Origin: Candidatus Multivorans sp.
GTDB lineage: Bacteria > Acidobacteriota > Thermoanaerobaculia > Multivoradales > Multivoraceae
DNA length: 64,000 nucleotides
NCBI GenBank assembly: GCA_965224025.1
Contig: CBDCYE010000001.1
Location: forward strand, 12,664-76,663
Direction of reading: 5' to 3'
The translations under genes were made by a program, and so were the position numbers. This document shows, piece after piece, positions 2,406-41,667 of the stretch. Every line of letters begins with the position of its first letter. Position 1 is the stretch's first letter. The notes under the pieces are model-generated. The model searched no databases. It was not told where the DNA came from and was given only the letters and a program-made list of their open reading frames with translations.

Positions 2406-3552
2406 GTGCGCCGTGGTAAGGCGCCATTTCCCAGTGGGTGCGAATCCCGCCCGGCAACTGTCGCTCCAGCCGGAAGCAGTCGGAGCGGATGAAGGAGGTA
2501 ACGAGATCGTCTGAAGCACTCCGATGAAGAAGGGCCGCCTTGGGCGGTTCAGCGAGCATGCGGGCCGCAACGCGAGTGAACGCCGAGCAGGCCTCGAAAC
2601 GGGCAGTGCGGGAGCCGACCCGCCTGAAATACGGGGAAGGCTGCCACCGGTCGGGAAGCGAGCGACGCTTACACCGCCCGGTTCCGCCGGGGTAGTGGCG
2701 GCGGCACGCATGAAGAGGGAGATGGAGGCAACACGGGAAGCCCCCGATGGTGGCGTTGCACGCGCCAACCGACAACCCGCGAGGGAGAGGTCGTGGCCGT
2801 TTGGGGTGGCGGAGAGGCTCGTAGTACCGGGGATGCCGGGTAACTCCGGCGGAGGGAAGGGGCCTTGGTTCGGGAACAGCGTATGAAGGAGGGAAGGGAC
2901 GTGAGGACTGGCGAGAGCCTAACCGCCTCAAAGAGTGTTCGGAGACTCCAGAGGACGCTACATGCGAAAGCGAAGGAAGCTCCAGGCTTCCGGTTCTACT
3001 CGCTGGCCGACAAGATGTGGCGCGCCGACGTGCTGTCCGTTGCCTGGCAGGAGGTCCGCCGCAACGGCGGCGCTGCGGGCGTGGACGGTGAGACGGTAGC
3101 GGCGATCGAATCGCGCGGTGTGGACCGATGGCTTGGGGCACTGTCGATTTGCCGTAGGCTGAGCGAGTTGACGGCGCGGCGCTACGGACTGCTGGAACCA
3201 GCGGTGGTGGTGGGACGACTCAACCGGCTGATGACCGGATGGGCGAACTACTTCACGCTGGGGCAGGTGAGTCCGTCCTACGCGGCGATAGATCGACACG
3301 CGACGCGGCGGCTGCGCCAGTGGCTGTGCCGGAAGCACAAGGTGAGGTCGGGAAAGAGTGTGCGCTTCCCCGACGAGCGACTCTGGGAAGAGTACGCACT
3401 TACGCGCCTGACGGTGCGAACGGCCAGCCTTCCGTGGGCGAAGGCATGATCCCGTCCGAGAGCCGGATGCGGGAAAATCGCACGTCCGGTTCGATGAGCG
3501 GCGACTGGAAACGGAGCCGATCCAAGGCCACCGCGCCAGTCGTCGACTCTAC
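2406..3552 (+). mobile_element. Group II intron (IIB type, class E-like by recollection) with an internally deleted IEP ORF
   Basis: 5' GTGCG at 2406; domain V gagccggatgcgggaaaatcgcacgtccggttc at ~3460-3492; domain VI ending ...gactctAC at 3552. EBS2 tgcggg (2607-2612) and EBS1 tgaaata (2625-2631) pair with the 5' exon. Confidence 0.92.
2901..3449 (+). pseudogene. Group II intron-encoded protein retaining only RT0 and domain X; RT1-7 removed in frame
   Basis: RT0 segment LQRTLHAKAK...FYSLADK...AWQEVRRNGGAAGVDG joins directly (~3143) to the X-domain segment RLNRLMTGWANYF...RLRQWLCRKHK. No YADD motif. Confidence 0.85.
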
Positions 3553-24088: not shown

Positions 24089-25330
<1,242 letters not shown>

Positions 25331-25339
25331 CGCTATCCC

Positions 25340-25369
25340 TTGACACCCCAAGGCCTTCCGGTGTCTAAT
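25340..25369 (+). promoter_or_regulatory. Sigma70-like promoter TTGACA-N18-TCTAAT for the aro-his-trp operon
   Basis: ttgaca at 25340-25345, tctaat at 25364-25369. Confidence 0.6.
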
Positions 25370-25413
25370 CCGGCGTTCCGGTACATTCCGGTCCCCGGAA
25401 CCCGCACCACGCC

Positions 25414-25509
25414 ATGAACTCACAGGCCAGCGACAGCGCGATCACGATGCCCACGGTTACCGGCGTCGTTGCGCAGGCTTGGTGGGCTCACGGTCACGGC
25501 AAGGGCTGA
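25414..25509 (+). CDS. Putative attenuator leader peptide MNSQASDSAITMPTVTGVVAQAWWAHGHGKG (alternative start 25447)
   Basis: Short ORF between the promoter and the operon, with TGG TGG (25480-25485) and CAC GGT CAC (25489-25497) near its end. Not in the ORF track. Confidence 0.72.
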   Translation: MNSQASDSAITMPTVTGVVAQAWWAHGHGKG

Positions 25510-25511
25510 AA

Positions 25512-25584
25512 ACCGGGCCAAGTCCCGGTAAGTGGTCCGGGACGAGGGTGAGCGAGAAGACCTCCTTCCGGATCGAAGGAGGTC
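25512..25584 (+). promoter_or_regulatory. Attenuator-like alternative hairpins, including a 10-bp stem sequestering the aroDE Shine-Dalgarno
   Basis: accggg/cccggt (25512-25529) competes with gtcccgg/ccgggac (25522-25543). gacctccttc-cggatc-gaaggaggtc (25559-25584) contains AAGGAGG 8 nt before TTG 25591. Confidence 0.7.
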
Positions 25585-25590
25585 ATCAGT

Positions 25591-27186
25591 TTGAGTTCGA
25601 CACCCGAGAATCCGCCGCGAGCCACCCCTGCGGAGGTCGCGCGGAGCGCAACGTATACGGAGGTTGCGCGGAGCGCAACGTCTACGGAGGTCGCCCGGAG
25701 CGCGACCTTGGTGGCGTCGTTGACGGAGGCACCGAGTGCGTCCGGCGACGAGTTGCGCGCGCTGTCGGAGCGCGCCGACTGTCTCGAGGTGCGTGCGGAT
25801 CTGGTCGGCGAGATCGACGCCGACTGGCTGCGGGAGCGTTTCGCGGGCGAACTGCTGTACACCCTGCGCAGCGAGGCGGAGGGCGGCCGCGGACCGGTCG
25901 ATGCGGGTCGGCGGGCGGAGCGGCTGGTTGCGGCCCGCGGGTACGACCTGGTCGATCTCGAGGCCGACCGCGATCTGGGCCGCGAGTTGCTCGCTTCGAT
26001 CGAGCCTGTCAGGCGGCTGGTGTCCTGGCACGGCCGCGGCGCCAGTCTCAAGGCGCTGCGAGGCCGGCTCAGACAGATGTCGGGCGCGGAGGCCCGGCTC
26101 TACAAGCTCGTTACTGCCCCGAAGAGGTCCGGTGAGGAGTTGGCGCCGCTCGAACTGCTGCTCGACACCGGCCGGACGGATGTCGCCGCGTTCGGGGTGG
26201 GCGCCATCGGCGCCTGGACCCGGCAGGTGGCGCCGCGGCTCGGAGCGCCGTGGGTCTACGGCGCCGCGGGTGCGCTGGTTGCCGCCCCCGGTCAACCGTC
26301 CATCGAGCGGCTGCGGGCCGACTACGGCCTGCCGAACCTGCCCCGCGTGTCGCGGCTGTTCGGCGTCGTCGGGCACCCGGCGGCGCACAGCCTGTCGCCA
26401 CGGCTCCACAACGCCGGCTACCTCGACCGCGGTGAGGCCGCGCTCTACGTCGCCTTCGACGCGCCTTCCTTCGAGACGTTCTGGAGCGAAATCGCGCGGA
26501 GCGACTTCTTTGAGCGTGCGGGCATGCCCCTCGGCGGCCTGAGCGTCACCGCGCCGCACAAGGCCGCGGCTCTGGCCGCTGCCGCGGAGGCCGGCGACCT
26601 GGCGGGTCGAGCCGGGGGTGCGAACACCCTGATCCCGGGCCCGGGCGCCGCCGCCGACAGGCAATGGCGGGCAGAGAGCACGGACCCGGAGGGCGTCGTC
26701 GGTCCGCTGCGCCGGCACGGCGTCGAGCTTTCGGGCCGCACTGCCGTGGTCATCGGCGCCGGCGGCGCCGGCCGGGCCGCGGCGGCGGGCCTGACGGCCG
26801 CGGGCGCGGACATCGCGCTCACAAACCGCACCGTCTCCAGCGGCCAGGCAGCCGCGGAGTCGCTCGGCGTTGCCTTCGTTCCGCTCGACGAGCTGGCGCC
26901 CGGCGCGTTCGACGTGGTCGTCAACGCCACCTCGCTCGGCCACGATTCCGCGGACCCGCTTCCCTGCGATCCGAACGCGCTGCGAGCCTCGGCTGCCGCG
27001 GTGGATCTGGTCTACGGCGGCGGACCGACGCCCTGGAGCCGGTCCCTCGCAGCGCGCGGCGTTCGGGTCGTGGACGGCCGGGAAGTGTTGCTGCACCAGG
27101 GTCTGGCGCAGTTCGAGGCGATGACGGGAAAGCCGCTGCGGTTCGAGGTCGGCGCCGCGGCCCTGGGATTGGAGACGCCGCGATGA
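25591..27186 (+). CDS. Bifunctional type I 3-dehydroquinate dehydratase / shikimate dehydrogenase (AroD-AroE)
   Basis: LEVRADL, YTLRSEAEGG, VSWH, YKLV, AAPGQ (AroD); HSLSPRLHN, SVTAPHK, ANTL, IGAGGAGRA, VNATSLG (AroE). Confidence 0.9.
   Translation: MSSTPENPPRATPAEVARSATYTEVARSATSTEVARSATLVASLTEAPSASGDELRALSERADCLEVRADLVGEIDADWLRERFAGELLYTLRSEAEGGRGPVDAGRRAERLVAARGYDLVDLEADRDLGRELLASIEPVRRLVSWHGRGASLKALRGRLRQMSGAEARLYKLVTAPKRSGEELAPLELLLDTGRTDVAAFGVGAIGAWTRQVAPRLGAPWVYGAAGALVAAPGQPSIERLRADYGLPNLPRVSRLFGVVGHPAAHSLSPRLHNAGYLDRGEAALYVAFDAPSFETFWSEIARSDFFERAGMPLGGLSVTAPHKAAALAAAAEAGDLAGRAGGANTLIPGPGAAADRQWRAESTDPEGVVGPLRRHGVELSGRTAVVIGAGGAGRAAAAGLTAAGADIALTNRTVSSGQAAAESLGVAFVPLDELAPGAFDVVVNATSLGHDSADPLPCDPNALRASAAAVDLVYGGGPTPWSRSLAARGVRVVDGREVLLHQGLAQFEAMTGKPLRFEVGAAALGLETPR
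25631..25706. repeat. Three tandem 27-bp palindromic repeats encoding (EVARSAT..)x3
   Basis: cggagg at 25631, 25658 and 25685; core gttgcgc-gga-gcgcaac. Confidence 0.85.
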
Positions 27187-28196
27187 AGATCTCCGCCGGC
27201 CTGCCGACCGGAGTGTCGGCTGCCCTCTTCGACAGCGTGAAGCGGCGCCGCCGGCTGGAGGCGCGCCTGACGGCGCTGCTCGAGGAGCGCGGCTTCGGCG
27301 AGGTGTTGCTGCCCATCCTCGACTACTTCGAGCCTTACCGGCCCCTGCTCCAGGGGCGCCGGCTGGAGCAGCTCTACCGGTTCGTCGACCGGGACGGTCA
27401 ACTGCTCGTGCTGCGTGGCGACTTCACGCCGATGCTCGCGCGGTTGCTCGCCCCCCACCTGGACGACCTGGAACTGCCGCTGCGTCTCTACTACCGCGGC
27501 GACGTGGTGCGGCATCAGCCTCTACGTCCCGGCCGGATGCGCGAGTACTCGCAGTTGGGCGCCGAGCTGCTGGGCGGCGACCGCACCGAGGCGGACGAGC
27601 GGACGCTGACCCTGTTCCTCGACCTGCTGCGTCAGGCCCGCGGCGACGCCCCTGGGAAGGTCTCGCCCGCATCCGGCGAAAGGAATGACGCCGCGCTCCG
27701 GGTCGTCCTCGGCGTCGCCGGTGCGCTCGACGAGCCCCTGCTCGCCGCGGCAGGAGATGGCGCCGCCGGTGAACTCGCTTTGCGGATAGCGAGCCGCGAC
27801 CGGCAGGCCGCGCGCCGGGCCGGTCTCGCCGATGTCGTAGAGCGCGGCTATCCGGAAGACCTCTCCGTGCTCGGGGACGCCGCCGCTGCGGTGACTGAAC
27901 TGCTCCTGCTCCGCGACCGGCTTTGTGCTGAGTACGGCGATCTCGGCATCGAGGTCGAGGTCGATCTCGCCGAGTTCGCCGCCGCCGCGCTCGACCCGAG
28001 GATCGGCGTTTCCGCGGGCCCGCGCGGCTACTACGACGGCCTCATGTTCGCGGCCTACGCGCCGGGTACGGCCCTGGCCCTGGGTGTCGGCGGTCGGTAC
28101 GACAGGGTGTTCCGGTCGCTCAGCGGCGACTGCTCGGCGGTCGGCTTCTCGTTCGGTCTCGACCTGTTGACCAAACTGGCGGAGGGCCCGGCATGA
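27183..28196 (+). CDS. hisZ: ATP phosphoribosyltransferase regulatory subunit
   Basis: LPTGV, LYRFVDRDG..LVLRGDFTP, RLYYRGDV, REYSQLGAE, YYDG, GGRYD, AVGFS; upstream of a short hisG. Confidence 0.88.
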   Translation: MKISAGLPTGVSAALFDSVKRRRRLEARLTALLEERGFGEVLLPILDYFEPYRPLLQGRRLEQLYRFVDRDGQLLVLRGDFTPMLARLLAPHLDDLELPLRLYYRGDVVRHQPLRPGRMREYSQLGAELLGGDRTEADERTLTLFLDLLRQARGDAPGKVSPASGERNDAALRVVLGVAGALDEPLLAAAGDGAAGELALRIASRDRQAARRAGLADVVERGYPEDLSVLGDAAAAVTELLLLRDRLCAEYGDLGIEVEVDLAEFAAAALDPRIGVSAGPRGYYDGLMFAAYAPGTALALGVGGRYDRVFRSLSGDCSAVGFSFGLDLLTKLAEGPA

Positions 28197-28831
28197 TCAC
28201 GTTCGGCCTGCCGAAGGGACGCAACCTCGGACCGGCGCGCGACGCGCTTGCCGCCGCGGGCATGGGTCTCACCGATCTCGATTCCTCCCGCCTGCGCCAA
28301 CGCTTCGGAGGCGTTGGGGTGCTGGGGGTCGAGGTCGAGGTGCTGCTGCTCAAGGACTGGGACCTGCCGCTCTATGTCGAGCACGGGATCGTCGACTGCG
28401 CGATCATAGGCTCAGACGTGCTGGAGGAGACCCAGCCCGACGTTTTCCAGCCGCTGCGCCTCCAGGACGGCCGTAGCCGCCTGTCGTTGATTGCCGAGAC
28501 GCCGGAACTGCCGCGGCGGAGCGGCCAGCTCCGCGCGGCGACCCGCTATCCGGCGTGGGCGGCGCGGCTTCTTGCCGCCCGCAAACTGCACGTCGAGGTG
28601 CTGAGCCTGACCAGCTCGATCGAACTCGGGCCGTTGCTCGACCTGACCGACATGGCGGTCGACATCGTGCAGACCGGCGCCACGCTCAGAACCCACGACC
28701 TGCACGAGGTCGAGGTGCTGGCCCAGGTGGCGCCGACGTTCGTGGTCAACCGGGCTTCGTTCCACGCCCACCGGCGCCGGTTGAGCCGGCTGCTGGGCGC
28801 GCTCGAAGAATCGGGGGCCGCCGGTGACTGA
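28193..28831 (+). CDS. hisG: ATP phosphoribosyltransferase, short form
   Basis: GLPKGR, DLPLYVEHGIVD, ATRYP, SIELGP, DIVQTGATL. Confidence 0.92.
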   Translation: MITFGLPKGRNLGPARDALAAAGMGLTDLDSSRLRQRFGGVGVLGVEVEVLLLKDWDLPLYVEHGIVDCAIIGSDVLEETQPDVFQPLRLQDGRSRLSLIAETPELPRRSGQLRAATRYPAWAARLLAARKLHVEVLSLTSSIELGPLLDLTDMAVDIVQTGATLRTHDLHEVEVLAQVAPTFVVNRASFHAHRRRLSRLLGALEESGAAGD

Positions 28832-30185
28832 GGTCCGTAGCGGGGGAGCGTTGCAGGTCCTGGCGGCGGACAGTCGTGCCGGGCGGGAGCGCCTGGAACT
28901 GCTCGACCGGCGGGGCCGGGGCGGTATCGCGGCCGAGATCGGCCATGCCGCCGCGGAGATCATAGGCCGGGTCCGCAGCGGCGGCGACGCGGCCCTTCTC
29001 GAGGCCGTCCGCCGCTTCGACGGCTTCGACGCGCCGTCGGCCGGCGCCTTGCGGCTGGACGACGCCAGCCCGCATCCGGCTTCTGAACGCATCGACCCCA
29101 ACGTACTCACCGCCATCGACCGCGCACGGGCCGCGATCGAGGTCTACCACCGGGCACAGCCGCACGGTCCGGGTGTCCAGCGCCTGGAACGGGACGGCGT
29201 GTCGATCGAGGAGCGCCGGCTGCCGATCCGCCGGGTCGGGATCTACGTGCCGGGTGGGCGGTTCCCCTATTCCTCTACGGTGCTGATGACCGCGGTGCCG
29301 GCACGGCTGGCGGGCGTCGAGGAACTCGTCGTCGCCACGCCGCCCCGGGCCTACCTCGAAAGTCCAGTGCTGCGGCACGTGCTGGACCTGGTCGAAGCGG
29401 ACGAGATCTGGGGCATGGGCGGCGCGCACGGCGTCGCGGCCCTTGCCTACGGCACCGAGTCGGTCCGGGCGGTCGACCTGATCGCCGGGCCCGGGAACGC
29501 CTGGGTAGCGGCCGCGAAGCAGCACGTGGCGGGCGACGTCGGCGTCGACCGCGCCGCGGGTCCGTCCGAGGTCGTCATCGTGCCGACCGACGGCGCTCCG
29601 GCCGGCTGGGTCGCGGCCGACCTGCTGGCGCAGGCGGAGCACGATCCCCTGGCGGTCGCGGTCCTGGTCACGGACTCCGCGGCGCTTGCCGATCGGGTTG
29701 CGTCGGAGGTGGACCGGCAGCTCTCGCTGCTGCCGACCCGAGACACCGCCGCTGCCGCGCTCGAAGCGCACGGCGCGGCGTTCGTCGCGGACGACCTGGA
29801 CGGTGCGCTCGCGCTGGCCGAACGGTTGGCGCCCGAGCATCTGCAACTGATCGGCGCCGCCGCGGAAGCGCGCGCGGACGAGATGCGCAATGCCGGCGCG
29901 GTGTTCGTGGGCGCTTCGTCGCCGGTGGTGTTCGGGGACTACGTGGCCGGACCGAGCCACGTACTGCCCACGGGCGGCACCGCGCGCTTCGCCTCCGGTC
30001 TCGGGATAGAGGATTTCGTGCGGCGTAGTCACACGGTTCGGTTCTCCGATGAGGCCTCGAGGGCCTGGGCCGGCGCCGCCGAGACCCTGGCGGCTACCGA
30101 GGGCCTGGCGGCCCATGCCGCGGCGGCCAGGTTGCGCCTCGGTGGGGGAGTCGGTGGGCAAAACCGCCGGGAGGCCGAGCCATGA
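28824..30185 (+). CDS. hisD: Histidinol dehydrogenase
   Basis: GIYVPGG, GPGNAWV, AGPSEV, LAQAEHD, APEHL, GDYVAGPSHVLPT. Confidence 0.95.
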   Translation: MTEVRSGGALQVLAADSRAGRERLELLDRRGRGGIAAEIGHAAAEIIGRVRSGGDAALLEAVRRFDGFDAPSAGALRLDDASPHPASERIDPNVLTAIDRARAAIEVYHRAQPHGPGVQRLERDGVSIEERRLPIRRVGIYVPGGRFPYSSTVLMTAVPARLAGVEELVVATPPRAYLESPVLRHVLDLVEADEIWGMGGAHGVAALAYGTESVRAVDLIAGPGNAWVAAAKQHVAGDVGVDRAAGPSEVVIVPTDGAPAGWVAADLLAQAEHDPLAVAVLVTDSAALADRVASEVDRQLSLLPTRDTAAAALEAHGAAFVADDLDGALALAERLAPEHLQLIGAAAEARADEMRNAGAVFVGASSPVVFGDYVAGPSHVLPTGGTARFASGLGIEDFVRRSHTVRFSDEASRAWAGAAETLAATEGLAAHAAAARLRLGGGVGGQNRREAEP

Positions 30186-31267
30186 GTGCCTCCGCCCAGG
30201 GCGCCGGCGCCTTCGTCAGGCCCGAGTTCCGCCGCCTGTCCGCCTACTCGCTCGACCGGGTGACATACCGCTACCGGCTCGACCAGAACGAGGCGCCGTG
30301 GGATCTGCCGCGGGCGCTCAAGCGCGAGGCGCTGGCGCGTCTGGCCGAGCGCACCTGGGCCCACTACCCGGACTTCCACGCCGAGCGTCTGCGGCGTCTG
30401 CTCGGTGACCTCAACGACTGGCCGGCGGAGGGCGTGCTGGTCGGAAACGGTTCCGGCGAGCTGCTGACGACTGTGCTCGAAGGCGTCGTTCGCCCCGGCC
30501 AGGAGGTGCTCGCCTGCGAGCCGTGCTTCAGTCTCTACGAGACCTTCGTCCGGCGCGCCGCGGGCGTGCCGCGGTTCCTCGAACCGGCGCCGGACCTGGC
30601 GCTGCAGACCGGCGAACTCCAGGCCGAGATCGGGCGCGACCCGAGGCGGCCGGTGATCCTGTGTACGCCGAACAACCCGACCGGCACGGCGGCGGATCCC
30701 GGCACGGTGGAGCGCCTTCTGGATGCGCTCGAGGCGCCGCTGCTGCTCGACAACGCGTACGGTGAGTTCTGCCGCCACGACTACCGGCCGCTGCTGCGCC
30801 GCCACTCGAACCTGATCGTGTTCCGGACCCTGTCCAAGGCCTGGTCCCTGGGCGGCATCCGCCTCGGCTACCTGCTGGCGGACTCGGAACTGGTGGCGGA
30901 GCTGATCAAGGTCAAGCTGCCCTACAACATCGGTCAAGCGGCGGCGGTGATCGGCGAAGTGGCCGTCGAACACGCCGACCGGCTTCTGCCGCGCGTCGCC
31001 CTGGTGCGGGCGCGCCGGGAGCAGTGGATGGTCATGCTGCGGGAGTTCGGCTTCGAGGTCCTCGACTCGGAGGCCAACTTCCTGCTCGCGCGCCATCCCC
31101 GCTGCGCCGGGATCCGCGACGGTCTTGCCGCCGGGGGTGTGCTGGTGCGCGACGTGAGCCGCTATCCGGGCCTGGCCAACTGCCTGAGGATCGGAATCGG
31201 CGGTGGTCCGGCGCTGCGCGCGACGCGACGCCTCCTGACGGAGATGAACGTGGGAGAGATGCCATGA
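30182..31267 (+). CDS. hisC: Histidinol-phosphate aminotransferase
   Basis: LDQNE, GNGSGE, PNNPTG, DNAYGEF, RTLSKAWSLGGIRLGY. Confidence 0.95.
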   Translation: MSASAQGAGAFVRPEFRRLSAYSLDRVTYRYRLDQNEAPWDLPRALKREALARLAERTWAHYPDFHAERLRRLLGDLNDWPAEGVLVGNGSGELLTTVLEGVVRPGQEVLACEPCFSLYETFVRRAAGVPRFLEPAPDLALQTGELQAEIGRDPRRPVILCTPNNPTGTAADPGTVERLLDALEAPLLLDNAYGEFCRHDYRPLLRRHSNLIVFRTLSKAWSLGGIRLGYLLADSELVAELIKVKLPYNIGQAAAVIGEVAVEHADRLLPRVALVRARREQWMVMLREFGFEVLDSEANFLLARHPRCAGIRDGLAAGGVLVRDVSRYPGLANCLRIGIGGGPALRATRRLLTEMNVGEMP

Positions 31268-31863
31268 GACGAGCGTCCATCGATCGCAAGACGTCCGAAA
31301 CCCATGTCCGTGCCGACCTGTCGCTCGACGGCGGCGCTTGCCGGCTTGATGTGCCGAACGGTTTCTTCTCGCACATGCTGGACGCCCTGACGCGCCACGG
31401 CGGTCTGGGGCTCGATCTGGAAGCCCGGGGCGATACCGACATCGACCTCCACCACACGGTGGAGGACGTAGGGCTGGTGCTTGGCGACGCGCTGCGGGAG
31501 GCCCTCGGCGAGCGCGCCGGAGTGCGGCGCTTCGCCCACGCTTTCGCACCGCTCGACGAGGCGCTGGCGCGCGCCGTCGTCGACCTCTCCGGCCGCGGTT
31601 CCTTCCACTTCCGGCTGCCCGCGGAACTGGAGCAGGCCTGGGTCACGACCGAGTTTCCGCTCACCCTGATGGGTGACTTTTTCGGCGCCTTCGCCGACCG
31701 CGGACGGCTGACGCTGCACCTGGATGTCCTTTGCGGCCGCAATCCGCACCATGTCGCGGAGGCGTCGTTCAAGGCGGTGGCTCTGGCGCTGCGTGACGCG
31801 GTGTCCCTGCGGACGGGAGGCGATGCCGAGGCGCCGAGCACGAAGGGCAGCCTGACGGCATGA
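31264..31863 (+). CDS. hisB: Imidazoleglycerol-phosphate dehydratase
   Basis: RKTSET, HMLD, DLHHTVED, PLDEALA, NPHHVAEASFKA, PSTKG. Confidence 0.95.
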   Translation: MRRASIDRKTSETHVRADLSLDGGACRLDVPNGFFSHMLDALTRHGGLGLDLEARGDTDIDLHHTVEDVGLVLGDALREALGERAGVRRFAHAFAPLDEALARAVVDLSGRGSFHFRLPAELEQAWVTTEFPLTLMGDFFGAFADRGRLTLHLDVLCGRNPHHVAEASFKAVALALRDAVSLRTGGDAEAPSTKGSLTA

Positions 31864-32546
31864 CCGGAGCGGCGAGCAAAGCCCCGGCGAGCAGCGCGAC
31901 GGTGGTCGACGCCGGCGTCGGCAACATCGGCAACCTGGTGCGGGCGCTCCGCCACCTGAGGTCCGAGGTCGAGATCACCTGCGACCCGGCGGTGATTCGA
32001 GACTCTCGCTGCCTGGTGCTGCCGGGCGTCGGCGCCTTCAGGCCGCCGCGCGAGGTACTGCGCGGCGCGGCCGAAGAGGCGATCCGGACCGCGCTCGAAG
32101 GCGGCGCGTACCTGCTCGGCATCTGCATCGGCTACCAGCTCCTGTTCGACAGCAGCGAGGAGTTCGGGATGACGGACGGTCTCGGCTTGCTCGCGGGCCG
32201 CGTCACCGAGCTTCCGGGCGGCGTGCCCCTGCCGCACATCGGCTGGAACCGCGTCTTCGGCACAGCAGACCATCCCCTGCTCGCCGGCGCAGCCGAGGAC
32301 GACCACTACTACTTCGTCCACTCCTTCGCGCCCCAGGACGTGCCGGAGGAGTCCGTGCTGGGCCGCTGCCGGCACGGCCGCAGTTTCCCCGCGATCACGG
32401 GCCGCGGCCGCATCGCGGGTACCCAGTTTCATCCCGAGAAGAGCGGCGCCGCCGGCCTGCGGCTGCTGCGCAACTACCTGACCTGGGCCGAGGACCTGGC
32501 TCACGGGACAGAAGGAGGCGACGGTGCAACTGCTGCCGGCGATTGA
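31860..32546 (+). CDS. hisH: IGP synthase glutamine amidotransferase subunit
   Basis: LPGVGAF, LGICIGYQ, PHIGWN, YFVHS, QFHPEKSG. Confidence 0.95.
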   Translation: MTGAASKAPASSATVVDAGVGNIGNLVRALRHLRSEVEITCDPAVIRDSRCLVLPGVGAFRPPREVLRGAAEEAIRTALEGGAYLLGICIGYQLLFDSSEEFGMTDGLGLLAGRVTELPGGVPLPHIGWNRVFGTADHPLLAGAAEDDHYYFVHSFAPQDVPEESVLGRCRHGRSFPAITGRGRIAGTQFHPEKSGAAGLRLLRNYLTWAEDLAHGTEGGDGATAAGD

Positions 32547-33345
32547 TCTGCGCGGCGGTCAGGTCGTGCGTCTCGAACGCGGCGACGACGGGCGGCGCAC
32601 GGTCTACGACGCCGATCCCGGCAACGCGCTCCGCCGCTACCGCGAGGCCGGGGTGTCCCGCATCCACGTCGTCGACCTGGACGCGGCGTTCGGCGGCGTT
32701 CCCCAGCGCGAACTGGTCGGGGAACTGGCGCGGCAGGCAGCGCCCGGCGGCATCCAGCTCGGCGGCGGCCTGCGCGACCGCGAATCCGTCGAGTGGGCGT
32801 TCGCGGCGGGCTGCGAACGGGCGGTGGTGACCTCCCTGATCGTCCGCGACTTCGACGTGTTCGCCGGCCTCTGCCGCCACTACCCGGGGCGCATGGTGGC
32901 GGCGCTCGACATCGACCGTGGCGAAGTGCGGCTGGCGGGCTGGACCGAATCGGCCGACCGCTCGCCGGCGACGCTGTGCGGGCAACTCGCCGGTCTGCCG
33001 ATCGCGGCGGTGCTGGTCACCGACATCTCGCGCGACGGGATGATGCAGGGTCCCAACATCGACCTGGCCTGCGAGATCGGTGTCATGGCCGGCGCGCCGG
33101 CGATCCTCTCGGGCGGCGTCCGCTCGGCCGCCGATCTGGAAGCCGCGGCCCGGCGGCCCGAACTCGAAGCCGCAATCGTCGGCCGCGCCCTCTACGACGG
33201 CTCGCTCGGCCTGGAAGAGGCAATCACCGCCTGCGCCGGTTCGGCGGACGCCGGCGGGGTCGCCGGCGCACCAGGCGGACCGGACGGTGCCTCGCTTCGC
33301 CCTGGGAACGCGGGCATCCTGCCCGCTTCCGGGAGAACGCCGTGA
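32524..33345 (+). CDS. hisA: ProFAR isomerase with a REP-derived C-terminal tail
   Basis: [42 protein letters not shown]; tail [11 protein letters not shown] encoded by 33301-33333. Confidence 0.93.
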
Positions 33346-34133
33346 GAGCCACCATCGAGCCGACCGGCCTCACCCGCCGCATCATCCCCTGTCTGGACGT
33401 GGCTGCCGGGCGGGTGGTCAAGGGCGTCCAGTTCAAGAACCTGACCGATCACGGCGACCCGACCGAGGCCGCGGCCCGATACGCCGCCGAGGGCGCCGAC
33501 GAGATCGTGTTCCTCGACATCACCGCCGCGCCCGAGCGCCGCGACACGGACCTCGACTGGGTGCGCCGAACCGCCGAGCAGGTGTTCATTCCGCTCAGTG
33601 TCGGCGGTGGCGTGCGTAGCACAGGCGACGGCCGCAAGTTGCTGCTAGCCGGCGCCGACAAGCTGGGGATCAACACCGCCGCGGTCGCCGAGCCCGAGCT
33701 GCTGACGCGTCTCGCCGAGCGCTTCGGGAGCCAGTGCGTCGTGCTCTCGGTCGACGTCAAGCGGCGGCGTGAAGAGGGAGCGGGCGGCCCGCGCTGGGAG
33801 GTCGTCACCCACGGCGGCCGCACGCCGACCGGGCTCGACGCGCTGGAGTGGATCGAGAAGGGAATCGAACGGGGCGCCGGCGAGATCCTGCTCACCAGCA
33901 TCGACAGCGACGGCATGAAGAGCGGCTACGACCTGGAACTGCTGCGGCGGGCGTCGGCGCTGTCGCCGGTGCCGGTCATCGCCTCCGGCGGCGCCGGCAC
34001 CCTGGAGCACCTGGCCGAGGCCCTGGAAACCGAGGCCGCGGCCGTGCTCGCCGCGTCGATCTTCCACCAAAAGGCGTTCTCGGTAGGCGCGGTCAAGGAG
34101 TACCTCGGCCGCCGCTATCCGATCCGTATGTGA
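33342..34133 (+). CDS. hisF: IGP synthase cyclase subunit
   Basis: [46 protein letters not shown]. Confidence 0.96.
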
Positions 34134-34154
34134 TGAGGAATCGAGGAGACGCCA

Positions 34155-34187
34155 CTGGGTACGCCGGCGCCCTCGCCGGCATCCGGG
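34155..34187 (+). repeat. REP-like element, compensatory stem variant
   Basis: ctgggtac-gccggcg-ccct-cgccggc-atccggg. Confidence 0.7.
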
Positions 34188-34218
34188 CTGAGACGGCATA
34201 GCAATCAACCGACAAACG

Positions 34219-34890
34219 ATGACGAAGGACAAACAGATGACATCCCCAGCCATCGACCCCGCGGCGCTCACCTACGACGACCGGGGCCTGCTGCCGGTCG
34301 TGGTCCAGGACGTGCTCTCGGGCGCGGTGCTGATGCTCGCCTACGCCAACCGGGAGGCGGTGGAACTCACGCTCGCCACCGGCGAGGCCCACTTCTACAG
34401 CCGCTCGCGGCAGCAGTTGTGGCGCAAGGGAGCGACCTCGGGCAACACACTGGCGGTGGTCGAAGTGCTCCAGGACTGCGACCGGGACGCGCTCCTGGTG
34501 CGGGCGCTGCCGGCCGGTCCGGCCTGCCACAACAACACGAGGAGCTGCTTCGAGCCGAACGCCGCCGAGTTCGAGCTCGGCTGGCTGGCGCGTGTGCTCG
34601 CCGAGCGGGCGTCGGCGTCGCCGGAGGAGAGCTACACCGCCCGTCTCCTCGACCAGGGAGTCGACCGCATCGCGCGCAAGGTCGCGGAGGAGGCGGGCGA
34701 GACCGTGATCGCCGGCGTCCGGGCCGACGCGGAGCCCGAGTCGGCGGAGCGGCGCGCCGATCTCGCGGCCGAGGCAGCCGATCTCACCTACCACCTGCTG
34801 GTGCTGCTGCAGGCGACCGGCGTCGGGATCGCCGGCGTGGCCGCCGAGTTGGGCCGCCGCCATCAGCAAGCCGGGGGAACGCAGCCATGA
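34219..34890 (+). CDS. hisIE: Bifunctional PR-AMP cyclohydrolase / PR-ATP pyrophosphatase (HisIE)
   Basis: GLLPVVVQD, YSRSRQQLWRKGATSGN, DCDRD, ACH, SYTARL, KVAEEAGE, EAADLTYH. Confidence 0.95.
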   Translation: MTKDKQMTSPAIDPAALTYDDRGLLPVVVQDVLSGAVLMLAYANREAVELTLATGEAHFYSRSRQQLWRKGATSGNTLAVVEVLQDCDRDALLVRALPAGPACHNNTRSCFEPNAAEFELGWLARVLAERASASPEESYTARLLDQGVDRIARKVAEEAGETVIAGVRADAEPESAERRADLAAEAADLTYHLLVLLQATGVGIAGVAAELGRRHQQAGGTQP

Positions 34891-36380
34891 GCCGGCCCGC
34901 ATCCGCCATCGCTCACACGCGGGAGTTCCTGGCCGACACGTCGACGCCGCTCGGCGTCTACAGCAAGCTGGCCGCGCATGCGGAGGGCGACTCCGGGGCG
35001 CGGCGCTTCCTGCTCGAGAGCATCACCGGCGGCGAGCACGTGTCGCGCTACAGCTTCCTCGGCGCGAGCCCGTCGCAGGTCTGCCGCGTGTACGTCGACC
35101 GGCTGGAGACCCTTGACCTCCATCGTCGCGGTGAGGTTCAGATCGAGCCCGGCGATCCGCTGCCGAAGCTACGGCGCCTGCTCGACGGTGTGACCGCCGA
35201 TCCGGCGCCGCCGTTGCCGTTTGCCGGCGGCTGGATCGGCGCCTTCGGCTTCGACGCGATCCGGCTCGTCGAGCCGTGTCTGGTCGACCATCCGGCCGGC
35301 CGCCCACCCGACCCGTTCGGCCTGCCGATCGCCACCCTGGCCCGCTTCGACGACGTGCTCGTGTTCGATCACGCCCGCCAGCGGATCGTCGCGGTGGCGA
35401 ACGAGATCACGGGCGAGACGACGGCGCCGGAGGCCGAAGCGCGGCTCGATGAACTGCAGGCGGTCCTCGAGAGCCGCGGCGAGGCCACGGCGGCCCGGGT
35501 CGAGGACCTGGGTGTCAAGGCAGAGACCGCCGCCCCGACGCTGAGCGACGAAGAGTACGGCCGGGCAGTGATGGCGGCGAAGGAGTACATCGCCGCCGGC
35601 GACATCTTCCAGGTTGTGCTGGCGCGCCGCTGGACTCTCGACCTGGACGTGTCGCCGGCGACCCTCTACCGGGCGCTGCGCCTGGTCAACCCGTCGCCGT
35701 ACATGGTGCTCTTCGAGGCGCCCGAGGCGTCGTTGATCGGCGCTTCGCCGGAGATGCTGGTGCGGCGCACGGGGCGGCGCCTGGAGGTGCGGCCGATCGC
35801 CGGCACCCGCCCCCGCGGCAGGACCGCGGCGGAGGACCGCGCTCTGGCCGAGGAACTGATGGCCGACCCCAAGGAGCGCGCGGAGCACGTGATGCTGGTC
35901 GACCTGGGGCGCAACGACCTCGGACGGGTGGCGTCGCCGGGCGGGGTCTCGGTGGCCGACTTCATGGTCATCGAGCACTACAGCGACGTGATGCACATCG
36001 TCAGTTCGGTCGAGGCGGAGCAGTCCGCCGCGGCCGGAAACGGCGCCGGCTCGGCCCTCGATGCTCTCCTGGCCTGCTTCCCGGCCGGCACGCTGTCCGG
36101 GGCGCCGAAGATCCGCGCGGTGGAGATCATCGACGAACTCGAGCCGGAGGCGCGCGGGATGTACGGGGGCTCGGTGGGCTACTTCTCGTTCGGCGGCGAC
36201 ATGGACACCTGCATCACGATCCGCACCCTGACCCTGGCGAACGGCGAGGCCTCGATCACCGCCGGGGCCGGCATCGTCGCCGATTCCGACCCGGTGCGCG
36301 AGGCGCAGGAGACCCGGGACAAGGCCGCGGCGCTGCTGCGGGCGGTGGCGCTGGCGCGTGACCTGGAGGGCCGGGCATGA
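34887..36380 (+). CDS. trpE: Anthranilate synthase component I
   Basis: FLLES, AGDIFQVVL, NPSPYM, PIAGTRPRG, EHVMLVDLGRND, PAGTLSGAPK, AGAGIVADS. Confidence 0.95.
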   Translation: MSRPASAIAHTREFLADTSTPLGVYSKLAAHAEGDSGARRFLLESITGGEHVSRYSFLGASPSQVCRVYVDRLETLDLHRRGEVQIEPGDPLPKLRRLLDGVTADPAPPLPFAGGWIGAFGFDAIRLVEPCLVDHPAGRPPDPFGLPIATLARFDDVLVFDHARQRIVAVANEITGETTAPEAEARLDELQAVLESRGEATAARVEDLGVKAETAAPTLSDEEYGRAVMAAKEYIAAGDIFQVVLARRWTLDLDVSPATLYRALRLVNPSPYMVLFEAPEASLIGASPEMLVRRTGRRLEVRPIAGTRPRGRTAAEDRALAEELMADPKERAEHVMLVDLGRNDLGRVASPGGVSVADFMVIEHYSDVMHIVSSVEAEQSAAAGNGAGSALDALLACFPAGTLSGAPKIRAVEIIDELEPEARGMYGGSVGYFSFGGDMDTCITIRTLTLANGEASITAGAGIVADSDPVREAQETRDKAAALLRAVALARDLEGRA

Positions 36381-36955
36381 TCCTCGTCATCGACAACTAC
36401 GACTCCTTCACCTACAACCTGGTCCAGATGTTCGGCGGTCTCGGCGCCGAACTCGAGGTGGTGCGCAACGATGTCGAGAGCGTGCCGGACCTGCTGGCGC
36501 GCGACTCGGAAGGCATCGTCCTGTCGCCGGGGCCGGGTCGGCCGGAGGACGCGGGAGTCTGCATCGACCTCCTGCGGGCGAAACCCGACGTGCCCCTGCT
36601 CGGCGTTTGCCTGGGACACCAGGCGCTCGGCTCGGCATTCGGCGGCACCGTCAGCCGGGCAACGGTGCTGATGCATGGCAAGACCTCCGAAGTCGAGCAC
36701 GGGGGGGTTGGTCTGCTGTCCGGCCTGCCGTCGCCCTTCGTCGCCACGCGCTACCACTCGCTGGCGGTCGAGGAGGAGAGCCTGCCGGCACAGCTTCAGC
36801 CGCTGGCCTGGAGCGAAGACGGAACGCTCATGGCGATGCGGCACCGGGAACTGCCCTACTGGGGCGTCCAGTTCCATCCGGAGTCGGTGCTCACGCACAC
36901 TGGACCGCAGCTACTTCAGAACTTCCTCGATCTGTGTGGAGAGGCCTATGACTGA
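36377..36955 (+). CDS. trpG: Anthranilate synthase component II
   Basis: IDNYDSFTYNL, SPGPG, GVCLGHQ, RYHSL, QFHPES. Confidence 0.95.
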   Translation: MILVIDNYDSFTYNLVQMFGGLGAELEVVRNDVESVPDLLARDSEGIVLSPGPGRPEDAGVCIDLLRAKPDVPLLGVCLGHQALGSAFGGTVSRATVLMHGKTSEVEHGGVGLLSGLPSPFVATRYHSLAVEEESLPAQLQPLAWSEDGTLMAMRHRELPYWGVQFHPESVLTHTGPQLLQNFLDLCGEAYD

Positions 36956-37988
36956 TCTCGACCTTTCGACCCTGTTGCGAACGGCGATCGCCGGCGAGGA
37001 CCTTCCCGCCACGACAGTGGAGGAGCTGTTCGGCCGGCTGATGGACGGCGAACTGTCCGAGGTGTGGAAGAGCGCGTTCCTGGTTGCGCTGGCGGCAAAG
37101 AGTGAGTCGGTGGGTGAGATCGCCGGCGCCGCACGGGCGATGCGGGCGCGGGCGGCGCGCGTGCCGCACACGAGTTCCGGCGTGATCGACACCTGCGGCA
37201 CCGGCGGCGACGGCCGCGGCACGTTCAACATCTCGACCGCGGCCGCCCTGGTGGCGGCTGCGGGCGGCGCGCGGGTGGCCAAGCACGGCAACCGCGCCGT
37301 GTCGAGCCGCTCCGGTTCGGCGGACGTGCTCGACGCTCTCGGCGTGCAGCTCTCGGGCGACACGGAGGCGCTCGGACGCTGCCTCGACGAGGTCGGCATC
37401 GCCTTCCTGTTCGCGCCGATGCTCCACCCGGCGATGGCCCAGGTCATGCCGGTGCGGCGCGAACTCGGCGTGCGCACGCTGTTCAACGTGCTGGGGCCCT
37501 TGACGAACCCGGCCGGGTCGAAGCGTCAGTTGATCGGCGTCTTCGCGGCCGATCTGGTCGAAGAAGTCGCGCACGTGCTGCGGGAACTCGGAAGCGAGCA
37601 CGCCCTGGTCGTCCACGGCGACGGTCTGGACGAGATCACGACCACCGGGACGACCGGGGTCGCCGAGGTCCGTAACGGCGAGGTCCGCACCTTCGAAGTT
37701 CATCCACGCGACTTCGGGATCGCCGCGGCGTCGCCGGACGACCTGGTCGGCGGCGCCCCCGAGAGGAACGTCGAGCTGATGCGCGGCGTGCTCGATGGCG
37801 GCGGAGGCGCCCTCGCGGACATCACATGTCTCAACGCCGGGGCCGCGCTCTTTGTCGCCGGCAGGGCGGACAGCCTCGCCGCCGGTGTCGCCGCTGCGTT
37901 CGAGGTTCAGCGCTCGGGAGCGGCGGCCAGGAAGCTCGAAGAGCTCGTCGGCTGGGCCGGCTGGGACGACGGAGGCGACGGAGACTGA
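36948..37988 (+). CDS. trpD: Anthranilate phosphoribosyltransferase
   Basis: DTCGTGGDG, FNIST, KHGNRAVSSRSGSAD, RTLFNVLGPLTNP, DGLDEI. Confidence 0.96.
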   Translation: MTDLDLSTLLRTAIAGEDLPATTVEELFGRLMDGELSEVWKSAFLVALAAKSESVGEIAGAARAMRARAARVPHTSSGVIDTCGTGGDGRGTFNISTAAALVAAAGGARVAKHGNRAVSSRSGSADVLDALGVQLSGDTEALGRCLDEVGIAFLFAPMLHPAMAQVMPVRRELGVRTLFNVLGPLTNPAGSKRQLIGVFAADLVEEVAHVLRELGSEHALVVHGDGLDEITTTGTTGVAEVRNGEVRTFEVHPRDFGIAAASPDDLVGGAPERNVELMRGVLDGGGGALADITCLNAGAALFVAGRADSLAAGVAAAFEVQRSGAAARKLEELVGWAGWDDGGDGD

Positions 37989-37992
37989 GGCC

Positions 37993-38922
37993 GTGTCCGA
38001 GGTTCCAGACATCCTGCGGCGCATCTGCGAACAGCGCCGCCGGCGCGTGGCCGTCGCTGTGAACCCGGGCTCCGCCCCTGGGAGCGCGGGCGTCTCGCCC
38101 GCATCCGCCTCCCCCCGCCTCGCCCCCGACGCCCCGGGCCGCCGTTTCCTCGACGCCATCTCCACCCGCCGTGGCCGCGCCGTAGTCGCCGAGATCAAGA
38201 TGGGATCGCCCAAGCTCGGCGACCTCCGCGGCCGCTTCGACCCGGTCGCGCGGGCCGAGACCTACGCCGCTGCCGGCGCGGCCTGCCTGTCGGTGGTGGT
38301 CGAGCCGGACCACTTCTACGGCAGCTACGAGCTGCTCGCCGAATGCACCGCCGCGTCCGGCCTGCCCGCGGTGGCGAAGGACTTCGTGGTCTCCGACATG
38401 CAGCTCGAGTGGGCGCGCGATGCCGGTGCCTCCGCAGTGCTCCTGATCGCCGCCCTCTACGACGCCGCGGAGTTGCGGCGGCTGGCGGCGCTCGCCCGGG
38501 GCTTGGGCCTCGTGCCCCTGATCGAGACCCACGACGACGAGGACTTCGAGAAGCTGGCCCCCCTGGGAGCGCAGGCCGCCAGCCCGCTTCCGGCCCTGGG
38601 AACGCGGGCTTCCAGCCCGCATCCGGGTCGCCCGCAACGCGGCAGTGAGGCCCCAGACTGGGAACTCGTCGGCATCAACAACCGCGACCTGCGCACGTTC
38701 GAGGTCGACCTGGAACGAAGCGCCGACCGCGTCGGCCGCCTCCCGGCGTCGGCTCTCAAGGTCGCCGAGTCGGGGATTCAAACGGGCGCCGATGTCGCCA
38801 GGCTGCGGCAGGCCGGCTTCGACGCCTTCCTCATCGGCGAGCGCCTGGTGCTCTCCGGCGATCCGGCCGCCGCGCTCGCCGAACTACTGGGTGCGCCGGC
38901 AACGTCGAAGGTGACCCCATGA
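37993..38922 (+). CDS. trpC: Indole-3-glycerol phosphate synthase with two in-frame REP insertions
   Basis: [41 protein letters not shown]; inserts at 38077-38107 and 38562-38626. Confidence 0.93.
38562..38626 (+). repeat. Two tandem 33-bp REP-like units inside trpC
   Basis: cctgggagcgcaggccgccagcccgcttccggc followed by cctgggaacgcgggcttccagcccgcatccgg. Confidence 0.85.
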
Positions 38923-39556
38923 AGGTCAAGATCTGCGGCGTCACCACGCCCGTCGACGCCCGGCTCGCCGTCGATCTCGGCGCCGACTTCATCGGCCTCA
39001 ACTTCTACCGGCCGAGCCCGCGCTGGATCGACATCGAGCAGGCCGCACAGATCCGGGCTGCCGTCGGGGACCGGGCGCAAGCCGTCGGCATCTTCGTCAA
39101 CCCCACGCGGGAAGAACTCGAAACAGCCGACCGCAGGGTCGGCCTCGACTTCCTGCAGTTCAGCGGCGACGAGAGCCCGGAACTCCTGGCCGAGTTCAAG
39201 GACCGCGCCATCCGCGTGCGGCGCGTCGGCGGCGTGGCCGCCGCGCCGGGCCGGATTCCGGACGAGGACTGCTGGGCGGTCCTGATCGACCGCGCCCACG
39301 ACCGGCTCTACGGCGGTTCCGGCGAAAGCTGGGACTACGCGGCGGCGGCCGATCTCGCTCTGGCGCCGGCCGGCGGCAGGGCGCGCCGGGTCTTCATTGC
39401 CGGCGGCATCGGCCCCGGCAACGTTGCGGAGGTCGTCGCGGCCGTGCCCGGCGCCTACGCCGTCGACACCTGTTCAGGTGTCGAGTCCTCGCCCGGACAC
39501 AAGGACCGCGCCAAGCTGGAGCAACTGTTCGCCAACCTCGCAGAGGGAGCAGCACG

Positions 39557-39560
<4 letters not shown>
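38919..39560 (+). CDS. trpF: Phosphoribosylanthranilate isomerase
   Basis: [47 protein letters not shown]. Confidence 0.95.
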
Positions 39561-40836
<1,276 letters not shown>

Positions 40837-40840
<4 letters not shown>

Positions 40841-41667
40841 CCCCCCTCCGCAAGCGCCCCTCACGCAGCGGAGCCATCGCCGCCGCCTTTGCCCGCTGCT
40901 CCAGGCAGAAGCGCGCCGCCTTCATCCCCTTCCTCGTCGCCGGCGATCCCAGCCTCGAAGCCACGCCCGACCTGCTGCGCGCCCTCGTGGCCGGCGGCGC
41001 CGACGTGATCGAGCTCGGCGTTTCCTTCTCCGATCCGATCGCCGACGGTCCCACGATTCAGCGCGCTTCGAACCGGGCTCTCGCCGCAGGTTCCTCGCTC
41101 AGCGCGGTGCTTGGGATCATCGAGCGCCACCGGGAGGAGCTGGGCGTTCCGATCGTCCTGTTCACCTACTACAACCCCGTCCACGCCCGCGGCGTTGCGA
41201 CCTTCGCCGCCAAGGCCGCCGACAGCGGGGTCGACGGCGTGCTCTGCGTCGACCTGCCGCCCGAGGAAGGCCTGCGCGAACTGCAGCCGGCCCTCGTGGA
41301 ACGCGGCGTCGACTCGATCTATCTGATCGCCGCCACCAGCACGAAGGAGCGCATCGACCGAGCCGCGGCGGCGTCGAACGGCTTCGTGTACTACACCGCG
41401 CGCTCCGACGTCACCGGCGAGCGCGAGGACCTGATCCCCACCCTGGCCCGGGAAGTGAAGCGGGTGCGACGGCGGGTCCGCCTACCGGTCGCCGTCGGCT
41501 TCGGCATATCGACCCCCGAGCAGGTCGAGGAAGTGGCTGCGGTCACCCACGGCGTCGTCGTCGGCAGCTCTCTGGTCCGCCTGGTCGAGGAGAACGCCAC
41601 GGAACCCGGCTTGGCGGCGAGGCTCGAACGCCGCGTCGGCGAGTTGACGGCGCCGCTGCGGCGCTGA
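40837..41667 (+). CDS. trpA: Tryptophan synthase alpha chain
   Basis: [45 protein letters not shown]. Confidence 0.96.

Follow-up and report, generated by a model that had tools for sequence, protein, structure and literature searches.

In 'Candidatus Multivorans', an uncultured soil bacterium of the Acidobacteriota (Thermoanaerobaculia), the genes for histidine and tryptophan synthesis share one operon, and the region upstream raises the question of whether a single leader peptide could sense both amino acids. A sequence-only reading of the window (the whole stretch of DNA analysed here, 64,000 nucleotides) had proposed a dual Trp/His leader attenuator, and every sequence feature that it listed was confirmed where it had been placed. 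This interpretation is supported here by the comparative occurrence of Trp plus His codons and by helix covariation, and we consider it likely that the locus is a ribosome-dependent leader-peptide attenuator with codons for both amino acids, controlling one operon for the two.

Operon, promoter and leader ORF

The merged aro-his-trp operon was borne out in its gene content by Pfam. Delimited by ORFs and Pfam, it comprises 17 genes without long gaps, from an aroD-aroE fusion to trpA (25591..41667; this and all features below lie on the forward strand), in the order aroDE, hisZ, hisG, hisD, hisC, hisB, hisH, hisA, hisF, hisIE, trpE, trpG, trpD, trpC, trpF, trpB and trpA. The first gene, the fusion itself, occupies 25591-27186 with a TTG start at 25591, and the last, trpA, was assigned by Pfam to 40837-41667. 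An identical aroDE-his-trp gene order was found in seven other families. The promoter described previously is present at 25340..25369, where TTGACA (25340-45), an 18-nt spacer and TCTAAT (25364-69) can be read from the sequence; both hexamers are kept in all 29 genus-level sequences displayed, and the relatives from other families have TTGACA-N17-TGnTnTAAT. A consensus promoter scan did not list the promoter of the window because its second hexamer has no A at position 2.

Downstream of the promoter lies the 31-codon ORF on which the earlier proposal was built (25414..25509; ATG at 25414, TGA at 25507-09), ending, as had been noted, in Q-A-W-W-A-H-G-H-G-K-G-stop. Its only Trp and His codons are four, clustered at the ORF end (25480..25497): TGG TGG at 25480-85, and CAC at 25489-91 and again at 25495-97. 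No Pfam family matched the leader peptide. It had been cautioned that the leader has no obvious ribosome binding site (RBS), and a Shine-Dalgarno sequence (SD) is indeed absent upstream of it in the window. Leaderless starts, seen in 8 of 26 relatives with 8-9 nt between the -10 box and the ATG, explain this in part, but in the genus of the window the ATG is about 44 nt after that box, so that the ORF is not leaderless there. In a small share of one RNA run, the contigs covered parts of fabF and aroDE only, and none lay on the leader. Judging from its sequence, the leader ORF is presumably translated.

Alternative helices and the proposed switch

The RNA downstream of the leader stop codon comprises five segments and can fold in two mutually exclusive ways, with either A:B and C:D or B:C and D:E formed. 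Segment A (25512..25517), which begins 2 nt past the stop codon, pairs with 25524-29 of segment B (25522..25529), and B may instead pair through 25522-28 with 25537-43 of segment C (CCGGGACGAGG, 25537..25547). The latter, a putative anti-terminator or anti-sequestrator, is also the partner of segment D (25559..25571, through 25561-71). Finally, D provides the 5' arm (25559-68) of a perfect 10-bp hairpin whose 3' arm, segment E (25575..25584), contains the aroDE SD AAGGAGG (25576-82). The exclusive stems (25512-17 with 25524-29 versus 25522-28 with 25537-43) and the SD-sequestering hairpin had both been seen before, and the hairpin had been said to have no U-tract; the T-tract is in fact absent, and a scan found no terminator-like site in 25000-26000 of the window. 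The locus combines exclusive helices, one of which would prevent the terminator or sequestrator, with a first-gene RBS held in a stable hairpin and an alternative pairing that would free it. The anti-sequestrator suggested earlier does exist, but as 25537-47 with 25561-71 and not as gagggt with acctc alone. The pairing proposed between gctcac in the control codons and gtgagc fared worse: the two strings are complementary, yet among close relatives only gctcac is constant and gtgagc varies, and in the absence of co-variation this helix was dropped. Two further candidates were rejected, namely a sixth segment that, as in the his attenuator, would lie within the coding tail and pair with A (mean z 0.06, with 4/44 below -2, and so not general) and a helix between the start codon and the Trp codons, obtained with RNAalifold on 19 genus sequences, which had no compensatory changes.

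The computed helix energies were -10.1 (A:B), -14.4 (B:C), -15.6 (C:D) and -18.3 kcal/mol (D:E), and the fold of the leader region was better than that of all 200 shuffles (z -2.6). The ORF with its W/H tail and the helices turn up again in dozens of species, and the feature thus exceeds what chance would give. Over 44 sequences, the paired cells amounted to 84.9% (A:B), 92.7% (C:D), 99.0% (B:C) and 87.9% (D:E), and pairs changed on both sides numbered 4, 4, 2 and 9, respectively. None of 500 shuffles reached the covariation score and each slid control scored lower, the signal coming from other families since the element is almost invariant within the genus.

According to the proposed mechanism, when charged tRNA-Trp and tRNA-His are ample the ribosome would proceed to the stop codon (25507-09) and its footprint would lie over A; with A masked, B:C and D:E would form, burying the first-gene SD and turning the operon OFF. 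Stalling at TGG TGG or at either CAC would keep the front edge of the ribosome short of A, and the unmasked A would then form A:B first, leaving C free for D and E open with its SD (operon ON). Shortage of either amino acid would suffice, as in an OR gate, and without any translation the model predicts the ON state, which sets it apart from the trp and his attenuators of E. coli. Masking by the ribosome, the assignment of ON and OFF, the level of control in the genus and the response of the leader to tRNA charging are what we infer from the sequence. In the W/H-tailed ORFs of relatives, the gap between the stop codon and the segment-A motif is 0-5 nt.

It might be argued that the ORF is incidental and that the RNA alone acts as a switch by binding a protein, a tRNA or a ligand, since the segment C core CCGGGACGAG and GTCCCGG in segment B are conserved beyond the needs of pairing and the leader of the window has no RBS. 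Such a switch would nevertheless leave the conserved ORF, its frame, its stop position and the W/H enrichment unexplained. Moreover, a scan with all 4227 Rfam families yielded no match to a T-box or to the leader families Trp_leader and His_leader, either at E<=10 in 24800-26200 or at gathering thresholds in the whole window. A T-box identity was dropped on the absence of such a match in the leader, and we find the RNA-only explanation scarcely credible.

Conservation of the leader and gene content

At 25/25 same-genus loci, aroDE is preceded by a leader ORF whose tail has the W..H pattern, all of these ORFs being homologous. Both WW and HGH are present in 22 of the 25, the exceptions being L006 (single W), L018 (W-R) and L025 (single H). 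The indels in the ORF (9, 3 and 27 nt, plus a 9-nt strain insertion) preserve the frame in every case, and the position of the stop codon is conserved in relatives.

Outside the genus, where as elsewhere in this work every genome compared is metagenome-assembled, the analysis took in 16 genomes of the same order, which represent 11 further families. A W+H leader was present in 9/9 genomes with his and trp genes (seven before aroDE and two before hisZ), and no leader was found in the three genomes where aroDE stands alone; the four with aroDE-trp only displayed one W-only leader, one W+H leader and two operons with no leader ORF. In a sample of 47 loci from distant species (L076-L122), which overlaps partially with the former, the leader was found at 29 of the 30 loci with his genes (23 before aroDE-hisZ and 6 before hisZ), the remaining one having only 100 nt of upstream sequence, and at 0/11 loci with aroDE alone. 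The leader peptides of these distant loci are otherwise unrelated apart from the W+H tail. As a check on the dual attenuator, the sequence-only reading had suggested looking for conserved Trp and His codons upstream of aroDE/hisZ orthologues and for covariation in the SD stem, and both were found (25/25 loci in the genus, 29/30 distant loci with his genes, and nine double-sided pairs in D:E). To judge from these arrangements, the leader follows the his-trp genes, not aroDE.

When candidate ORFs were picked by the RNA motif only, 26 of 44 tails qualified as W/H-bearing versus 108 of 6495 control tails (1.66%). Among 364 tail codons there were 51 W and 90 H, as against 0.77% W and 2.14% H across the 18 proteins that the window encodes. 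The picture is that of a short upstream ORF in which the codons for the end products are clustered. An ordinary attenuator sensing Trp only or His only, with the other residue kept for a reason unrelated to sensing, would be compatible with the single W in 8 of the 26 listed leaders, with the non-consecutive His codons of the window and with genome G032, where a trp-only operon retains three His codons in its leader. However, all 26 motif-chosen tails have at least one W and at least three H in spite of their unrelated peptides. Furthermore, the His run was lost in two lineages, G029 and G406, whose aroDE-trp operons have leader tails with 0 and 1 His, respectively, and where hisD was not found at E<=1e-20, which suggests that the His codons track the presence of his genes. 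A W-only leader accompanies a trp-only operon, and the separate his-only cluster of G032 has a His-only leader. On this evidence we regard single-amino-acid sensing as unlikely.

The same tails bear on whether the W-W-x-H-x-H nascent peptide could be an arrest peptide that senses a free amino acid in the tunnel, as TnaC does, or a peptide acting in trans. The tails keep both their motif, two W followed by an H-rich stretch, and the spacing between that motif and the stop codon, and a parallel might be drawn with TnaC and peTrpL as far as the available accounts of them go. Against this, the tails diverge widely between families except for W and H, which fits codon sensing better, and an arrest triggered by excess would switch a biosynthetic operon ON at plenty, which is the wrong sign; an arrest or trans-acting peptide thus seems very improbable to us, and codon sensing by a dual attenuator is the reading we retain.

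A class-wide pattern scan of 401 genomes, including the unpublished G044 (counted in that tally alone), gave matches in 144, with 70/98 inside the order and 73/302 outside it, although most of the outside matches listed do not have the CCGGGACGAG core and a reversed-pattern control matches too. In the locus comparisons above, the motif expression overlooked leaders with a variant segment B, and these were found by eye. A search of the PLSDB plasmids gave no match.

Termination or translation

The earlier proposal was one of translational attenuation. Other families, however, point to ancestral transcriptional control: the D:E hairpin is terminator-like in 23/31 other-family relatives versus 1/30 in the genus of the window. 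Because the SD hairpin is an intrinsic terminator in those 23 relatives, the element is, on comparative grounds, ancestrally a transcription attenuator. In the genus of the window the U-tract appears to have eroded and control would be exerted there by termination or by translation; that it is translational alone is conceivable. The combined energies were -32.7 kcal/mol for B:C plus D:E versus -25.7 kcal/mol for A:B plus C:D, and RNAalifold on 19 genus sequences also predicts the OFF conformation. As thermodynamics favours OFF, ON must be a kinetic state. In the model, a kinetic ON would suit a termination decision and sit uneasily with a switch that is translational alone; the hairpin of the window nevertheless has no U-tract.

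Relation to known leaders

The available text of PMC9413887 and PMC1183508 describes hisL and trpL as short leader ORFs with clustered end-product codons and alternative helices, anti-terminator versus hairpin, and the present leader resembles the enterobacterial ones in a stop codon so positioned that the terminating ribosome would alter the fold. It differs from them in that it apparently senses two unrelated amino acids, in the location of the first-gene SD inside the terminator 3' arm, in the absence of an Rfam leader match and in its host, a member of the Acidobacteriota; moreover, there are five segments here versus four (trp) or six (his), from which the ON prediction for the untranslated state follows. 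The thr and ilv leaders have multivalent codons (Thr+Ile; Ile+Leu+Val), and the one described here is like them in that the regulatory codons of a single peptide stand for two or more amino acids. In those leaders, however, the amino acids come from pathways that connect, and they are the products of one operon or derivatives of these, whereas here the pathways are biochemically separate, have PRPP as the sole common substrate and are linked by nothing but the fusion of the operons. To our knowledge, every leader described so far responds to a single amino acid or to several whose pathways are connected. A Trp+His leader was not found in the published literature, in a search whose scope excluded subscription papers and supplements, among them a 2004 study that reportedly surveyed attenuators in proteobacteria.

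In translational attenuators, a hairpin hiding the first-gene RBS replaces or doubles the terminator, according to the parts of PMC9413887 that were available, and sequestor hairpins are described for Actinobacteria in those of PMC1262725. What differs from such SD-sequestering attenuators is that most of the order's families have this same hairpin as a terminator, and that the U-tract is missing only in this genus. Mycobacterial leaderless poly-Cys short ORFs act as attenuators, as far as the available portion of bioRxiv 10.1101/834739 goes, and the present case would be similar to them in having, in some relatives, a leaderless first-cistron short ORF that senses an amino acid. The mycobacterial cases differ in amino acid, phylum and RNA, and in the genus of the window the ORF is not leaderless.

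A broader scenario, to which we would give an even chance, is that a two-input OR gate for separate pathways arose with the his-trp operon fusion in one order of the Acidobacteriota, that its codons were re-tuned with gene content, the His codons decaying where his genes were lost, and that in 'Candidatus Multivorans' the U-tract was lost and the switch moved from transcriptional to mainly translational. At about 250 nt, the element would also supply compact parts for sensors with two amino-acid inputs. The mechanism itself is textbook; what stands out is a leader that apparently reads two unrelated amino acids in keeping with the fused operon. The relatives form a series of contrasts, with a dual leader at his-trp operons, a W-only or decayed one at trp-only operons, a His-only one at a separate his cluster and none at aroDE alone, and the family of leaders may thus represent a natural example of cis-regulatory logic that is rewritten as operons merge or split.

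The leader region and its operon

The sequence-only reading had placed a promoter, a short ORF, its Trp and His codons, mutually exclusive stems and a hairpin holding the Shine-Dalgarno (SD) sequence before aroDE (an aroD-aroE fusion), the first gene of a merged aro-his-trp operon. All these elements were present as described when the sequence was read again, and the operon was confirmed by Pfam. Downstream of the fabF end (25330), the forward strand carries a promoter, in which 18 nt separate TTGACA (25340-45) from TCTAAT (25364-69), and a 31-codon leader ORF running from ATG 25414 to TGA 25507-09, whose only Trp (25480-85) and His (25489-91 and 25495-97) codons all lie in the final eleven. 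RNA segments A to E follow on the same strand: hairpin A:B (25512-17 with 25524-29), which competes with B:C (25522-28 with 25537-43); C:D, the anti-terminator, in which 25537-47 pairs with 25561-71 (ten pairs flanking a single C-C mismatch); and the perfect 10-bp hairpin D:E (25559-68 with 25575-84), with AAGGAGG (25576-82) in its 3' arm, ahead of the TTG start codon of aroDE (25591). The fold of the leader region beat all 200 shuffles (z -2.6), and consensus scans of it listed no promoter and no terminator. An Rfam search of the leader gave no match, which sets it apart from the T-boxes and from the leader families described so far.

Seventeen genes follow the leader with no long gaps between them (Pfam and ORFs), in the order aroD-aroE fusion, hisZ, short hisG, hisD, hisC, hisB, hisH, hisA, hisF, hisIE, trpE, trpG, trpD, trpC, trpF, trpB and trpA, which ends at 41667. 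Within the 5' end of aroDE there is a 27-nt tandem repeat (2.7 copies, 25631-25703) at which one public run showed a 27-nt deletion, so that the N-terminal extension of the enzyme differs in length among strains.

The window makes up the final 64 kb of a contig of 76,663 bp, in an assembly of three contigs (main one, 5.05 Mb) with a contamination figure of 5.66. The element occurs twice in its own genome, on the main contig and in the window. This 76.7-kb contig (C2) duplicates the chromosomal fabF/aroDE-his-trp region at C1:2383569; the two aroDE proteins are 87% identical, and the window's leader peptide is closer to those of other species (L043-45, L070) than to that of the main contig. C2 may be a mis-binned second-strain contig or an acquired copy. 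It also carries a group II intron at 2432-3552 of the window, recognized by the Rfam models for domains D1-D4 (89 bits) and for the catalytic intron (50 bits).

Conservation and probable translation of the leader

In the genus 'Candidatus Multivorans', an ORF with a W..H tail was found 5' of aroDE at all 25 loci compared, the window's own counted, and both WW and HGH were present in 22 of these leaders, the exceptions being L006 (single W), L018 (W-R) and L025 (single H). In the genus, indels within the leader ORF measured 9, 3 and 27 nt, while indel lengths outside it, in the 5' UTR and past the stop codon, were not multiples of three; a strain from a public run also had a 9-nt insertion within the ORF. 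Two same-genus assemblies were damaged: in L050 the leader ORF was missing from the promoter up to a point just short of A-H-G-H, and in L075 the frames of aroDE, hisZ and hisG were broken at several places. This damage may represent assembly errors or real decay.

The promoter TTGACA-N17-TGnTnTAAT is common to relatives. The distance from the -10 box to the leader start codon was 8-9 nt in eight of 26 relatives, a leaderless arrangement, 14-25 nt in seven and 31-79 nt in six; of the other five, the search expression misfired in one and found no such promoter in four. In the window's genus the leader ATG lies about 44 nt downstream of the -10 box and has no SD, which bears out an earlier caveat that an obvious ribosome-binding site (RBS) was missing. 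Judged from the sequences, leader translation in the genus is supported by frame conservation and not by a recognisable start signal. In the lone RNA run sharing words with the stretch, contigs covered parts of fabF and aroDE and left the leader uncovered.

To avoid selection on codon content, candidate ORFs were picked by the downstream RNA motif alone, and at 29 of 47 loci an ORF of 14 or more codons had its stop codon no more than 8 nt upstream of the motif. The Trp/His criterion singled out 26 of 44 candidate tails, compared with 108 of 6495 (1.66%) control tails taken stop-to-stop across the six reading frames of these loci. Trp accounted for 51 and His for 90 of the 364 codons in the 26 tails, compared with 0.77% and 2.14%, respectively, in the window's 18 proteins. 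Each tail contained at least one Trp and at least three His codons, while the remaining peptide varies among families.

Leader presence and operon content in relatives

Beyond the window's own family, the comparison took in 16 genomes that represent 11 families of the order. His and trp genes occurred together in nine, and all nine had a Trp and His leader, seven before aroDE and two before hisZ, with aroDE upstream or apart. Three genomes had aroDE alone, none with a leader, and four had aroDE-trpEGDCFBA without his genes, two of them with a leader (three Trp and no His codons in the tail of G029; one Trp and three His in G032). A further 47 loci from distant species (L076-L122), partly overlapping this sample, gave a leader in 29 of 30 loci with his genes (23 before aroDE-hisZ and six directly before hisZ), the sole leader-less one having just 100 nt of upstream sequence. 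Five loci were aroDE-trpE, one with a decayed leader (one Trp, one His) and four without; none of the 11 aroDE-alone loci had a leader; and in L105 a leader preceded an aroDE whose downstream gene could not be named. The leader thus belongs to the his-trp genes and not to aroDE. Moreover, at eight loci (L079, L080, L084, L086, L101, L102, L126 and L127) a dual leader with its own TTGACA promoter lies directly before hisZ, with aroDE upstream of the attenuator or kilobases off, which indicates that aroDE entered or dropped out of the regulated unit on more than one occasion.

With the window's protein as query, hisD was not found at E<=1e-20 in G029, G028, G039 and G406 (genomes of L130, L133, L138 and L116; completeness 96-100% where given), all with trp-only operons. 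These lineages may be histidine auxotrophs or have a very divergent hisD. Their leaders are Trp-only (G029), nearly His-free (G406, whose close relatives have H-H-H at that position) or absent. The exception is G032: its aroDE-trp leader retains three His codons, and elsewhere it has a his cluster with a different gene order, ahead of which lie a separate His-only leader ORF (six His) and a terminator. This cluster (L139, G032:C3:415000-431000, reverse strand) comprises hisI-like, hisD, hisC, hisB, hisH, hisF and hisA; with the leader ORF, a terminator-like hairpin with a T-tract precedes it, and the two together resemble a standard attenuator of the His-only type within this bacterial order. 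Because the relatives are not independent, we treat these cases as a consistent pattern, in which His codons appear to follow his genes, and not as a statistical test.

RNA pairing and proposed mechanism

Four helices were kept across an alignment of 44 sequences, 13 from the genus (window counted) and 31 from other families. Paired cells amounted to 84.9% for A:B, 92.7% for C:D, 99.0% for B:C and 87.9% for D:E, with four, four, two and nine pairs, respectively, changed on both sides; within C:D the position of the C-C mismatch is itself conserved. For both conformations, none of 500 shuffles matched the observed covariation score, and slid controls were all lower. The comparative test proposed with the sequence-only reading, namely Trp and His codons in relatives and covariation in the SD stem, thus upholds its central idea of a dual leader.

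The distance from the leader stop to the segment A motif was 0-5 nt for Trp/His-tailed ORFs in relatives, and in the window 2 nt separate the stop from the point where pairing in A begins. Once the stop codon is in its A site, a ribosome would cover the RNA to about 25520, that is, the whole of segment A, so that B would pair with C and D with E (OFF). A ribosome stalled at TGG TGG or CAC would have its front edge at about 25510 at most, leaving segment A free; A:B would then form first, C would be available to D, and E and the SD would stay open (ON). With no translation at all, the model predicts ON. The calculated energies (A:B -10.1, B:C -14.4, C:D -15.6 and D:E -18.3 kcal/mol) give -25.7 kcal/mol for ON and -32.7 kcal/mol for OFF, while before E is made ON lies just 0.6 kcal/mol above the minimum (-26.3). 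ON would therefore be a kinetic state, as in classical attenuators. Unlike the his attenuator, in which a sixth segment pairs with A, the leader has no general segment of this kind (44 sequences, mean z 0.06, 4/44 below -2).

In other families a T-tract comes after the last hairpin and doubles as the spacer between SD and start codon, and 23 of 31 of their sequences scored as terminators, compared with 1 of 30 in the window's genus. As D:E is mostly terminator-like in those families, the element seems to be ancestrally a transcription attenuator whose hairpin also hides the SD. In the window's genus, control may be mainly translational or involve weak termination, and the modelled thermodynamics speak against translational switching purely at equilibrium.

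Discussion

Within the order the B-C-D pattern matched 70 of the 98 genomes sampled, and in the rest of the class 73 of 302, a tally that is the only one to count the unpublished genome G044; outside the order the conserved core was missing from most of the listed matches, and reversing the pattern as a control likewise gave matches. In the openly accessible literature searched in full text, we found no leader that combines codons for Trp and His, nor any account of the operon; an earlier mention elsewhere is possible. The parts of PMC9413887 available to us describe His leaders in Firmicutes and some attenuators in which an RBS-sequestering hairpin stands in for the terminator.

As far as sequence comparison can tell, the leader probably acts in the same way as the trp and his attenuators of the classical type, although by sequence it falls outside the described leader families. 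It differs in that, as a candidate, it would sense two unrelated amino acids, matching the fused operon. This makes the leader of interest for research on attenuation and on operon evolution.
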